DNA from: an uncultured Pseudomonadales bacterium | GTDB taxonomy: Bacteria; Patescibacteriota; Microgenomatia; UBA1400; PJMF01 | Direction: 5' to 3' | DNA: 64,000 bases | Assembly (NCBI GenBank): GCA_964437755.1 | Contig: CAYTIA010000005.1 | Location: 802-64,801, forward strand | Shown here: one piece after another, positions 60,438 through 62,719 of the stretch | How the letters are laid out: each line of letters opens with the position of its first letter | Numbering within the stretch: position 1 is the first letter of the stretch | Position numbers and translations under genes: made by a program | The notes under the pieces: generated by a model | Told to the model about the DNA's origin: nothing | Database searches by the model: none | What the model saw: the letters and a program-made list of their open reading frames with translations, nothing else

Positions 60438-62369
60438 CTAGCGTTTCTGGATGATTTCTATTGCTTCTTGGGTTTTTAACTGTTTTTGTTCTCCAGATAC
60501 CATATTTTTTAAAGAGACGGTGTTTGAACTGAGCTCATCCTCTCCAATAATAACTACCCAGGGAATTTTTTGCTGATTTGCGTACCCAAACTGTTTTCCA
60601 AGAGCATCAAATTCAGGGTAGATACTTGCTTCAATCTTTTCTTGACGAAGTTTGGTTACGACTTTTAGTGTTTCTGGTAGCAACTCTTCAGAAAAAATTG
60701 ATACGAGTACTTGTGCTGAGGAGTTTGAACTTGGAACAAGTCCTAGTTTAACTGCAGCTTCAACGGTGCGATCAAAGCCAAATGCTACTCCAACTGCGGG
60801 AATGGACTTTGAGCTAAGCTGTTCTATTAGATTATCATATCTGCCTCCTCCTCCACATGATCCACCTGAATATTCAGGCAAGATAACTTCAAAAATCAAG
60901 CCCGTATAATAATCTAGTCCTCGTGCTAGAGTGGGGGAGAAGACTAAAGTTTCTTTTGGAACTCCTAAGGATATTGTTTGCTCAATAATCTGTTTTAGAT
61001 TATCACTAGATTTTACATCTTTGAGAGAACCGAGAAGTTTAATTGATTGGTTTTTCATTAAGCCTTTTTTTTCGAGCTCATCAATCACCTCAGACTCGGT
61101 TTTTTTATCAAGTTTGTCTATGGTTTGGATAATACTAAAAATATCAACTTCCTTATTTGCATAAGGTTTAATAGTTGAGATCAGGGTTTGACGATCATTA
61201 ACGATTAACTTAATTTTTTTAAAACCAATATTCTCATATGATCGATAAGTGCAGGCTAAGATTTCTGCATCTGCTAGAGTTGATTTGGTTCCATAAATAT
61301 CTACATCACAATGACAGAATTCTCGATATCTTCCGGCTTGTGGTTTATCGGCTCTGAACACATTTTGTATTTGATATCTTTTAAAGAATTTTGGAAGATT
61401 GTTTTGATACTGAGCAAGAATACGAGCTGTTGGTACTGTTTGATCATATCTCAAGCCAATCTTTCTTTTACCTCTATCTTCAAAAGTGTAAACTAATTTA
61501 TCTGCCTCATCGCCATATTTTCCAAGTAATAACTCTGCGTACTCAACGGTAGGTGTTTCCAAGGGTTCGAACCCAAAAAGGGTAAAGACTTCAACTATCT
61601 TGTTTTGGACATATTCTCTTTGTCTTTTTTCTTCAGGAAGAAAATCTCTAAATCCCTTAAGTGTTTGTAATGTTTGTTTATTCATAATCTGTTGATTTTG
61701 ATAATTAATTTCTTGGACTTTTGCTGAAATGGTAACCAACTGTTTTGTCTTGTCAATTATAACCGAGATTTTTTCACCACTTGGCTGAATAATTTCTGAT
61801 AAATCAGAGTAGGTGCTAAACGCTATACTGCCAGATCCACAGGCCGTTTCTTTAACTAGTGAATTTGTATCTTTAACATAAACAGTTGGATATATTTTAT
61901 TTTCTTGGTATTCCACCAAGCCAAAAGCGGGTAGATTAAACTGCTTACAATAGAATCTTGCTTTTTCTTCAAACTGTTTGATGGAAGCTGATTTTTTTTG
62001 GATTAAGTAGCCAATTCCGTCTAATAAAACAATATTTTTCTCAACGATTTTAGGATTAATTGGTAACTTTATCGTAGTTTTGTTTTTTTGATTAGAATAA
62101 AGTACCTTGGACTTTCCAACTCCACTAGTGAGTAGTTCTCCCTTATCTCCTAAGCTATACGCAAAGGCGATGGCTCCATTAACAGATAGCTCATTTCCCA
62201 TCATTTTCAGCTTTGGGATATTTTTATCATACGAAACATAGCCAACCTGTTCAACCTCTAGGAGCAAATCTTTGGTGAATATATTAAAGTCTTGATTAAG
62301 TTGTTTATTTACCAGCGCAGTTAGATTGCCTCCTGCGATAAGGTATCTTTTTTGAGTTTGAATTTTCAT
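60438..62369 (-). CDS. hisS: Histidyl-tRNA synthetase with an in-frame N-terminal DapF/PhzF-fold domain of about 220 aa
   Basis: Class II HisRS from MNKQTLQTLKGFRDFLPEE onward (motifs 1-3, HisA/HisB, anticodon-binding domain). The N-terminal region carries a DapF-like C-terminal-lobe motif ETACGSGSIAF and SVNGAIAFA where the first-lobe Cys would be. Confidence 0.8.
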   Translation of the reverse strand: MKIQTQKRYLIAGGNLTALVNKQLNQDFNIFTKDLLLEVEQVGYVSYDKNIPKLKMMGNELSVNGAIAFAYSLGDKGELLTSGVGKSKVLYSNQKNKTTIKLPINPKIVEKNIVLLDGIGYLIQKKSASIKQFEEKARFYCKQFNLPAFGLVEYQENKIYPTVYVKDTNSLVKETACGSGSIAFSTYSDLSEIIQPSGEKISVIIDKTKQLVTISAKVQEINYQNQQIMNKQTLQTLKGFRDFLPEEKRQREYVQNKIVEVFTLFGFEPLETPTVEYAELLLGKYGDEADKLVYTFEDRGKRKIGLRYDQTVPTARILAQYQNNLPKFFKRYQIQNVFRADKPQAGRYREFCHCDVDIYGTKSTLADAEILACTYRSYENIGFKKIKLIVNDRQTLISTIKPYANKEVDIFSIIQTIDKLDKKTESEVIDELEKKGLMKNQSIKLLGSLKDVKSSDNLKQIIEQTISLGVPKETLVFSPTLARGLDYYTGLIFEVILPEYSGGSCGGGGRYDNLIEQLSSKSIPAVGVAFGFDRTVEAAVKLGLVPSSNSSAQVLVSIFSEELLPETLKVVTKLRQEKIEASIYPEFDALGKQFGYANQQKIPWVVIIGEDELSSNTVSLKNMVSGEQKQLKTQEAIEIIQKR

Positions 62370-62380
62370 AATATTTTTCC

Positions 62381-62487
62381 ATAAAAAACAGTCACCTGGG
62401 TTTTTGCAGAAACAAAAAACCCGCTTAGCTAGCGGGGGTGGTGACTGTTTGAAAAATTTTATTAAATAAACACGTTAAATCACCCCG
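62381..62487 (-). promoter_or_regulatory. Putative transcription attenuator in the hisS leader (terminator/antiterminator hairpins with U-tracts)
   Basis: Minus strand: CUAGCGGGGUG (segment 1) ... CAGUCACCACCCCCGCUAGCUAAGCGGGUUUUUUGUUUCUGCAAAAACCCAGGUGACUGUUUUUUAU. There is a 6-bp GC terminator stem followed by U6; an alternative 8-bp GGGUUUUU/AAAAACCC stem; an outer 8-bp CAGUCACC/GGUGACUG stem followed by U6. Segment 1 can pair with 9 of the terminator 5'-arm nucleotides. Confidence 0.5.
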
Positions 62488-62622: not shown

Positions 62623-62695
62623 GGGCTTGTAGCTCAGGTGGTAGAGCACTGCTATCGCACAGCAGGGGTCAGGGGTTCGACTCCCCTCAAGTCCA
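62623..62695 (+). tRNA. tRNA-Ala (anticodon CGC)
   Basis: Cloverleaf GGGCUUG/CAAGUCC acceptor with G3:U70 Ala identity pair; D-arm GCUC-AGGUGGUA-GAGC; anticodon loop AUCGCAC; T-arm AGGGG-UUCGACU-CCCCU; discriminator A; CCA not encoded. Confidence 0.8.
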
Positions 62696-62719
62696 CAGTG
62701 AAGTAAGGCGTGTGTTCGG

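Follow-up and report, generated by a model that had tools for sequence, protein, structure and literature searches.

A histidine-racemase-like domain joined in frame to histidyl-tRNA synthetase in an uncultured member of the Microgenomatia

Introduction

Why would a histidyl-tRNA synthetase (HisRS) carry, ahead of its catalytic core, a domain that resembles an amino acid racemase? The question is raised by one open reading frame (ORF) in a 64,000-nucleotide stretch of DNA, referred to here as the window, from an uncultured bacterium that GTDB places in the Patescibacteriota (Microgenomatia, UBA1400, PJMF01; assembly GCA_964437755.1, contig CAYTIA010000005.1, positions 802 to 64,801 of the forward strand). 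A first-pass annotation, made from the letters without database searches, had described the ORF as a HisRS preceded by a DapF/PhzF-fold domain that lacks one catalytic cysteine, and had considered this architecture undescribed. A full-text literature search agrees, as it returned no paper on a HisRS–racemase fusion, nor any on the operon of a racemase-like gene and hisS that we describe below from the Candidate Phyla Radiation (CPR) and DPANN archaea. The comparisons reported here suggest that a homologue of histidine racemases was recruited as a partner of HisRS and was occasionally fused to it.

Results

The fusion gene lies on the minus strand of the window. Its parts, with the evidence for each, are as follows.

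60438..62369, minus strand: one ORF (643 codons and a stop) that encodes a histidine-racemase-like domain joined to HisRS (ORF list; identical protein in two other assemblies; fused orthologues L085, L005 and L089)
61707..62369, minus strand: N-terminal domain, residues 1-221, compact two-lobe DapF-type fold of the CntK/HisR branch (NCBIfam, PDB phmmer, AlphaFold2, Foldseek, substitution ratios)
61686..61706, minus strand: linker of 7 residues, NYQNQQI (222-228), about where standalone homologues end; conserved in L085, L005 and L089
61683..61685, minus strand: ATG of Met229, the ancestral hisS start kept in frame and a possible internal initiation site (alignment of standalone HisRS; ATG kept in all fused relatives)
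60771..61655, minus strand: HisRS class II catalytic core, residues 239-533 (Pfam tRNA-synt_His PF13393, 6.5e-40; GRYREF and GGGGRYD motifs)
60441..60713, minus strand: HGTP anticodon-binding domain, residues 553-643 (Pfam PF03129, 7.9e-18)

The ORF list confirms one continuous frame of 643 codons, as first described. At the 36% GC of the window, 228 codons without a stop before the HisRS start would arise by chance with a probability of about 7e-8, which bears out the earlier impression that a stop-free stretch of some 220 codons was unlikely to be noise.

Only two NCBIfam models matched the N-terminal domain significantly, those of HisR (NF052224, 1.3e-11) and CntK (NF033599, 2.6e-8), and DapF (DAP_epimerase) gave no match to it in Pfam or NCBIfam at E <= 1. 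The best PDB matches by phmmer were HisR (9CR1, 3e-6) and then CntK, and CntK_N (PF26317) is among the precomputed matches of the collection for the exact gene product and for all homologues, some of which carry the automatic annotation “histidine racemase.” An AlphaFold2 (AF2) model of the domain, built on 116 homologues, has a mean predicted local distance difference test score (pLDDT) of 94.1 and a predicted template modelling score (pTM) of 0.91, so the structure prediction proposed in the first-pass annotation for residues 1-220 gives a confident two-lobe DapF-type fold. When this model was compared with the PDB by Foldseek, ranks 1-9 were HisR and CntK chains only (E 3e-15 to 6e-12, template modelling score [TM] ~0.7), led by HisR (9cr1, E 3e-15) and then CntK (6jis, E 3e-13). 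PhzF, the O-ureidoserine racemase DcsC, and DapF followed from rank 10 onwards (E ~1e-8, TM 0.55-0.67), with DapF structures below HisR, CntK, PhzF, and DcsC, and HisR and CntK ahead of DapF by 5-7 orders of magnitude in E-value. The proposed fold was thus correctly recognized, but the nearest relatives are HisR and CntK rather than DapF or PhzF.

With HisR of Fusobacterium nucleatum (9CR1/9CR6) and CntK of Staphylococcus aureus (6JIS/6JIW), the domain shares the two-lobe fold, the motif of the second catalytic cysteine, and a set of Asn/Glu/Asn/Glu/Ser residues. It differs from them in sequence (18-25% identity), in length (~50 residues fewer, the loops of lobe 1 being trimmed), in being fused to an aminoacyl-tRNA synthetase, and in having, in the window, serine in place of the first cysteine. 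The gene context differs as well, with hisS here and cntLM or pabABC-like genes there. The domain shares with DapF and PhzF the superfamily fold and the placement of active-site motifs at the N-termini of two central helices, but it has no DapF model match, and its structural E-values are ~1e-8 compared with 1e-15 for HisR. Read by eye, Glu60 stands two residues before the first catalytic position, as in HisR and CntK, whereas the DapF motif CGNGARCFA is spaced otherwise. Because the domain scores under the equivalog cut-offs and keeps one cysteine of the catalytic thiol pair (see below), we file the domain, from sequence and model together, as a probable new compact subfamily of the cofactor-independent histidine-racemase branch and not as a histidine racemase proper.

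The HisRS part comprises residues 229-643. It scores 381.8 bits on TIGR00442 (hisS; residues 235-632, NCBIfam), which passes the equivalog cut-off of 286.75, and HisZ models score far under their own cut-offs on the ORF protein. HisZ is a catalytically dead, histidine-sensing paralogue of HisRS that regulates HisG, the ATP-phosphoribosyltransferase. The motifs GRYREFCHCD and GGGGRYDNL can be read in the translation, and we take RYREF (motif 2) and GGGRYD to be the histidine-pocket motifs of HisRS. Since the anticodon-binding domain and the catalytic core are both present, the protein is assigned to HisRS and not to HisZ; by homology, the C-terminal part is a full, canonical class II (IIa) HisRS predicted to aminoacylate. 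The first-pass annotation had put the canonical HisRS start at residue ~221. In a search of a representative set of 1.8 billion proteins, standalone HisRS proteins align from query residue 229, which moves the ancestral start to Met229 (MNKQTLQTLKGFRDF). The linker ahead of it is probably a remnant of the earlier stop codon and of the spacer between the two genes.

Other HisRS proteins of unusual architecture came up in the representative search. P0267 has an N-terminal YbaK-type tRNA_edit domain, P0216 has an N-terminal SLOG/LDcluster4 domain, and P0203 has a C-terminal domain that weakly matches nucleotidyl cyclases (21.5 bits, just under the Pfam cut-off of 21.9 bits).

The fusion recurs beyond the window, as the first-pass annotation had suggested should be checked in orthologues. 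Two independent ENA metagenome assemblies (L086 and L087) encode the identical 643-aa protein, and a 74-kb Logan contig (L085) encodes a 93%-identical fused protein of 642 aa with the neighbors seen in the window (L31, RF-1, and an HtrA-like protease). At ~75% identity, in-frame fusions are encoded by L005 (a GTDB species representative; 645 codons) and L089 (a JGI metagenome; 649 codons), each ~72% identical in the N-terminal domain and ~78% in HisRS. The ratio of nonsynonymous to synonymous substitution (dN/dS) between the window and L085 is 0.15 for the N-terminal domain and 0.07 for HisRS; against L005 it is 0.125 for the N-terminal domain, at a synonymous divergence (dS) of ~1.4, and is not computable for HisRS because synonymous sites are saturated. 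By these ratios, both parts are under purifying selection, and the low dN/dS at a dS of ~1.4 implies that the frame was maintained while synonymous sites diverged widely. For practical purposes, we can dismiss an assembly or frameshift artefact.

Nearly all homologues stand alone, as proteins of 210-220 aa, and belong to CPR bacteria (Woesebacteria, Levyibacteriota, Daviesbacteria, Magasanikbacteria, Saccharibacteria, Peregrinibacteria, and Gracilibacteria) and DPANN archaea, with a longer form in some Clostridia. Judged by the named sources of the nearest homologues of both HisRS and the racemase-like domain, the window probably comes from a CPR bacterium of the Microgenomates group. In CPR and DPANN, the usual arrangement is a separate gene directly upstream of hisS, often overlapping it or a few bases apart. 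To describe the linkage, HisRS was located by tblastn around 80 loci from genomes (one genome per species) and 80 loci from metagenomes, two sets that share some contigs. The informative loci numbered 69 in the genome set and 51 in the metagenome set.

hisS fused in frame: genome set 3; metagenome set 3
hisS immediately downstream of the racemase-like gene: genome set 23; metagenome set 31
hisS immediately upstream of the racemase-like gene: genome set 5; metagenome set 0
hisS near (within ~3 kb) but not adjacent: genome set 9; metagenome set 6
no hisS, adequate flanks: genome set 29; metagenome set 11
uninformative, flanks too short: genome set 11; metagenome set 29

Around half of the informative loci, or more, have the racemase-like gene next to hisS, and in several arrangements, which is far beyond chance for a genome of ~1,000 genes. 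A scan of 146 other neighbor proteins revealed no second conserved partner family; in the survey of loci without adjacent hisS, Trp_repressor-like proteins (5/146) and peptidase M20 (3/146) were found. We are highly confident that the architecture and the linkage to hisS are real.

Fusions to HisRS are also found outside the clade of the window. L105 and L104 encode N-terminal fusions with both catalytic cysteines and a different linker, 46% identical to the window protein. The reverse order, HisRS followed by a Cys/Cys racemase-like domain, is found in two Clostridia metagenome-assembled genomes from rabbit gut (L069:2666-4747 and L071:2651-4738; 693-695 residues), in which the HisRS part scores 351 bits on TIGR00442 and the C-terminal domain matches CntK at 2e-26 and HisR at 5e-22. 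From these comparisons, fusion to HisRS arose at least twice, in both domain orders. In P0061, the racemase-like domain is fused to a PRA-PH (HisE-type) domain, and this fusion together with the HisRS fusions in both orders amounts to “Rosetta-stone” evidence for a function around histidine and HisRS.

Other Clostridia and Peregrinibacteria (L053, L063, L065, L066, and L079) have separate genes, with hisS directly ahead of the racemase-like one. Further fusions of the racemase-like domain are encoded at L068:3911-5329, L073:3881-5947, and L016:3428-4636 and in P0061 and P0110; the partners in this group are a VanX/DdpX-type D-Ala-D-Ala dipeptidase-like domain, a cyanophycin-synthetase-like ATP-grasp domain, a HAD hydrolase, PRA-PH, and a low-molecular-weight phosphatase.

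Close relatives of the window differ in whether the two genes are joined. P0002, the closest match in the first homology search (72% identical), is annotated as a protein of 264 aa with a HisRS of 415 aa after it. At the junction in L001 (L001:6670-6838) is a G+C-rich insertion of 169 nt that consists of five or six short hairpins and has a 10-nt direct repeat (AAAAATTAAT) on either side. The insertion is likewise present in L002, L003, L004, and L088, exactly at the racemase/HisRS junction of the 72%-identical relative. Removing the element and one repeat copy from L001 restores an in-frame fusion (...AKVKKIN/YQDQPIMNKQ...). The element brings an in-frame stop and adds ~45 junk codons to the first ORF, leaves both ORFs intact, and introduces a perfect TATAAT, ~33 nt before the hisS ATG. 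The element is similar to the Rickettsia palindromic elements that insert into coding genes, and no copy of it was found in the window or in the other loci fetched. L160, of the same clade (72%/70% identical), has separate genes whose first ORF ends in INYLKKL and a TGA that overlaps the hisS ATG (ATGA). Since L001 and L160 are split and close relatives are fused, the two states interconvert within the clade. The first-pass annotation had taken a separate gene in relatives as a sign of artefact. Most relatives do have a separate gene, but this does not make the window ORF an artefact, as fusion appears to be an occasional state of a conserved operon of the racemase-like gene and hisS. A query spanning the junction (residues 121-340) matched nothing but short HisRS fragments, missed even the fusion protein of the window itself, and is uninformative on the frequency of fusion.

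P0001, from an ENA contig of 1808 nt, is like the window protein up to ...EKISVII (95% identity over the 221-aa query) and then has a tail identical to that of P0002, including the translated hairpin element. It represents either a recombinant strain or a chimeric metagenome contig.

The following active-site features were placed by alignment.

62184..62186, minus strand: codon TCT for Ser62, at the position of the first catalytic cysteine (Cys67 in HisR, Cys72 in CntK; alignment to 9cr1/9cr6 and family column)
61839..61841, minus strand: codon for Cys177, the second catalytic cysteine (Cys209 in HisR), in ETACGSGS (invariant in 116/116 members)
61833..62327, minus strand: span with the predicted histidine-contact residues Asn15, Glu60, Asn64, Glu174, and Ser179 (alignment to HisR)

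Both observations of the first-pass annotation on the catalytic cysteines hold: the second-lobe motif is present, with Cys177 of ETACGSGS aligned to HisR C209, and the first-lobe cysteine is replaced, with Ser62 of MMGNELSVNG aligned to HisR C67. In HisR, Cys67 and Cys209 are proposed as the two bases, and Asn18, Glu65, Asn69, Glu206, and Ser211 are proposed to hold histidine, on the basis of a model and not of a ligand complex (PMC11602996, JBC 2024). Each of these five contact residues, equivalent in the same order to the five predicted in the window protein, is kept in 115-116 of the 116 family members.

Across the family, the first catalytic position is cysteine in 93 members, which thus have both cysteines, and serine in 23 (~20%), and the second cysteine is present in all 116, including every Ser-type member. 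The serine codons are TCN in the window clade and in L038, L046, and L058 and AGY in ten other loci; as each is one step from TGY, the change from cysteine to serine occurred at least twice. Ser-type and Cys-type members are interspersed: P0075 (Ser) and P0039 (Cys) are 74% identical, and P0098 (Ser) and P0115 (Cys) are 70% identical. The Cys group has 41 conserved columns, of which 37 are likewise conserved in Ser-type members and the other four show conservative changes only; mean column entropy is the same in the two groups. No column of the 116-member alignment separates the groups by a new cysteine, as a relocated catalytic residue would. By this comparison, the exchange is recurrent and tolerated, without relaxed constraint. 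Linkage to hisS is seen for 16 of 21 Ser-type and 45 of 95 other members (Fisher p ~0.03, phylogeny uncorrected), and the enrichment of serine near hisS has p = 0.01 in the genome set and p = 0.7 in the metagenome set; we treat it as a weak trend only.

Possible expression signals and the neighborhood of the fusion gene are as follows.

62420..62436, minus strand: hairpin CCCGCTAGCTAAGCGGG and T-run resembling a terminator, just ahead of the ORF (consensus scan)
62395..62368, minus strand: weak promoter-like site before the ORF (consensus match only)
61756..61729, minus strand: sigma-70-like match (TTGACA, 16 nt, TACCAT) within the coding sequence of the N-terminal domain, ~44 nt before Met229 (best in the region, 10/12 matches)
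62623-62696, plus strand: divergent tRNA-Ala (CGC) between the fusion gene and the upstream 244-aa ORF (the only tRNA and only Rfam match in the 64-kb window)

The terminator-like hairpin suggests that the fused gene starts its own transcription unit. No T-box, riboswitch, or other leader was found upstream of the ORF by Rfam and tRNA scans. The internal promoter-like site is kept in the 93%-identical relative (as TACTAT) and lost in L005 and L089; we rejected it as functional, since the region has no more promoter-like matches than chance would give and neither L005 nor L089 conserves the hexamers. A Shine-Dalgarno core (GGAG/GAGG/AGGA, <=22 nt upstream of the start) precedes 5 of 58 crude gene calls, under the 14% background, and the genome appears to initiate translation largely without Shine-Dalgarno pairing. 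With such motifs scarce genome-wide, the missing motif before Met229 is uninformative on internal initiation. The neighboring ORF for ribosomal protein L31 (59988-60404, minus strand) has 138 aa from a TTG start and 127 aa in the gene call of the collection; the Pfam L31 domain covers residues 12-74, and the remaining ~60 residues form a C-terminal tail rich in Lys, Glu, and Gln.

Discussion

As the N-terminal domain falls in the histidine-racemase branch, it would share the substrate of HisRS itself, a concrete functional link that goes beyond generic amino acid sensing. The first-pass annotation had suggested an amino-acid-sensing or editing-like appendage; kinship with histidine racemases supplies a concrete substrate link, while an editing-like role is without direct support. 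We propose that in the lineage of the window the frames of a racemase-like gene (product of ~215 aa) and of hisS were joined at the former stop codon and spacer. The N-terminal domain would bind free histidine, and the Cys/Cys majority of the family would interconvert D- and L-histidine. In organisms that scavenge amino acids, HisRS, which irreversibly consumes L-histidine, would then have access to D-histidine or to a pool of histidine kept close by. The window protein would be a slow single-thiol racemase, with Cys177 as a base (presumably the base for the D-isomer, by analogy with DapF) and with Ser62 or water giving or taking the other proton, and aminoacylation would pull D-histidine towards L-histidine. 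Microscopic reversibility rules out a truly one-way racemase, but coupling to irreversible aminoacylation still pulls. From the sequence comparisons, the pairing of the racemase-like gene with hisS is probably functional; that its role is histidine binding together with slow racemisation feeding HisRS is, in our judgment, an even call.

Several observations weigh against this proposal. The window protein has Ser62 and Cys177 where a histidine racemase has a thiol pair of two cysteines. The same substitution engineered into HisR, C67S, greatly lowered turnover (PMC11602996), and the window domain may be nearly inactive as a racemase. Scores on the histidine-racemase models are far from the equivalog cut-offs (44.7 against 400 bits for HisR, 33.7 against 300 bits for CntK), which indicates a distant subfamily and not an equivalog. 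A D-histidine source for these organisms is putative. In about 1/4 to 2/5 of informative loci hisS is missing from the surroundings, and the domain is also fused to other partners (e.g., VanX-like, ATP-grasp, HAD, and low-molecular-weight phosphatase domains), so judged by domain architecture the family is not exclusively a HisRS accessory. Finally, as far as gene structure can tell, the split L001 and the overlapping separate genes of L160 show that the fusion is dispensable; we infer that the pairing is probably essential and the covalent link is not.

The most direct alternative is that the N-terminal domain, with its Ser62, no longer racemises and is a histidine-binding module, which captures scarce histidine near the active site or tunes HisRS allosterically. 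The change from cysteine to serine at the first site is the one made in HisR and CntK to inactivate them for crystallography. The low turnover of HisR C67S, the retention of all binding residues, and the weak association of Ser-type members with hisS, uncorrected for phylogeny, fit such a pseudoenzyme. However, the association is absent in the metagenome set alone, and the mixing of Ser and Cys types at up to 74% identity, without other systematic active-site change, suggests the same function for both. Above all, a domain for binding only would not need Cys177, which would be free to vary, yet this residue is never lost, in the 23 Ser-type members or elsewhere, and we lean to retained, slower single-thiol catalysis. 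Because Cys177 and every other conserved site are kept, a slow single-thiol racemase is favored over a purely inert domain, and we consider a pseudoenzyme unlikely, though worth keeping in view.

As the other main rival, the fusion could be a functionally neutral read-through caused by a small indel in a tightly packed operon, with two proteins that work independently, or with HisRS mostly made from Met229, and with no channelling or regulation. Close relatives with separate, intact genes, the retention of Met229 in all fused forms, a largely Shine-Dalgarno-less genome compatible with internal initiation, and the promoter-like site ahead of Met229 are all in keeping with this. That site, however, is unconserved and of a kind found at chance level, and the fused frame has lasted over a dS of ~1.4 and is seen in four divergent sequences. 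Fusions that arose independently with either domain first, and the operon linkage itself, also speak for a functional relationship, and a neutral fusion seems to us quite improbable. Another explanation runs from L to D: D-histidine would be made for a different end product, for example an opine metallophore or a D-amino-acid component of the wall or of a peptide, with hisS adjacent only for co-regulation through the supply of histidine. CntK makes D-histidine for staphylopine, and the family fusions to a VanX-like D,D-dipeptidase or an ATP-grasp ligase point to D-amino-acid peptide chemistry. However, hisS is the only conserved neighbor, no cntL, cntM, or other D-histidine-consuming gene was found among the neighbors, and co-regulation alone hardly explains physical fusion to HisRS in either order; we regard this direction as very improbable. 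There is next to no chance that the ORF is an assembly or frameshift artefact, or a DapF mis-joined to hisS. Most homologues are separate genes and P0001 looks like a chimera of two strains, but the identical ORF in independent assemblies, purifying selection on the fused orthologues, and the distance from DapF in both model and structure searches are against it.

Known domains appended to synthetases act on tRNA, on aminoacyl-tRNA, or in signaling, as with WHEP on eukaryotic HisRS and the YbaK/ProX/INS editing domains, and we know of no editing domain with a DapF fold. The window protein shares with these appendages the modular addition to a class II core and the tolerance of HisRS for an extra N-terminal domain, but its N-terminal domain, by homology, would act on the free amino acid before activation. 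A functional analogy may be drawn with the adenylation and epimerisation didomains of nonribosomal peptide synthetases, where amino acid activation is physically coupled to a stereo-inverting module; there, however, the folds are unrelated and epimerisation takes place on the carrier-bound thioester, after activation. HisZ is a precedent for a disabled homologue kept as a histidine-binding partner. HisZ and the hisRS2 gene, which lies inside the histidine decarboxylase (hdc) clusters of lactic acid bacteria (PMC6909576), are both HisRS-type genes wired to histidine-metabolising enzymes. Here, in contrast, the synthetase is canonical, and the possibly disabled partner is the racemase homologue, covalently joined to it.

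The sequence similarity network in the HisR paper was length-filtered to 250-308 residues (PMC11602996), and proteins of ~215 aa fall outside that range. The full-text search found no report of an assayed member of the compact CPR/DPANN branch. It is possible, though we think it doubtful, that the compact HisR-like proteins of CPR and DPANN as a whole are a dedicated partner of HisRS, which acts on the free amino acid before activation and uses or excludes D-histidine, and in which the first cysteine can be replaced by serine without loss of function. If the window protein does work as proposed, it would have a single-thiol racemase mechanism, which is not described for this superfamily.

Accessory domains homologous to racemases of the very amino acid that the synthetase uses would form a new class, one that acts on the supply or the chirality of the substrate before activation. 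In nature, serine has repeatedly replaced cysteine at a catalytic base in a site that otherwise stays the same, an experiment already set up for the study of how cofactor-independent racemases use their two bases. The wider pattern outweighs the single ORF: an operon of a racemase-like gene and hisS is conserved across CPR and DPANN, with at least two independent fusions. Together, operon and fusions lead to a testable hypothesis on the histidine supply of ultra-small auxotrophic symbionts, which may perhaps include D-amino acids from necromass or from their hosts.

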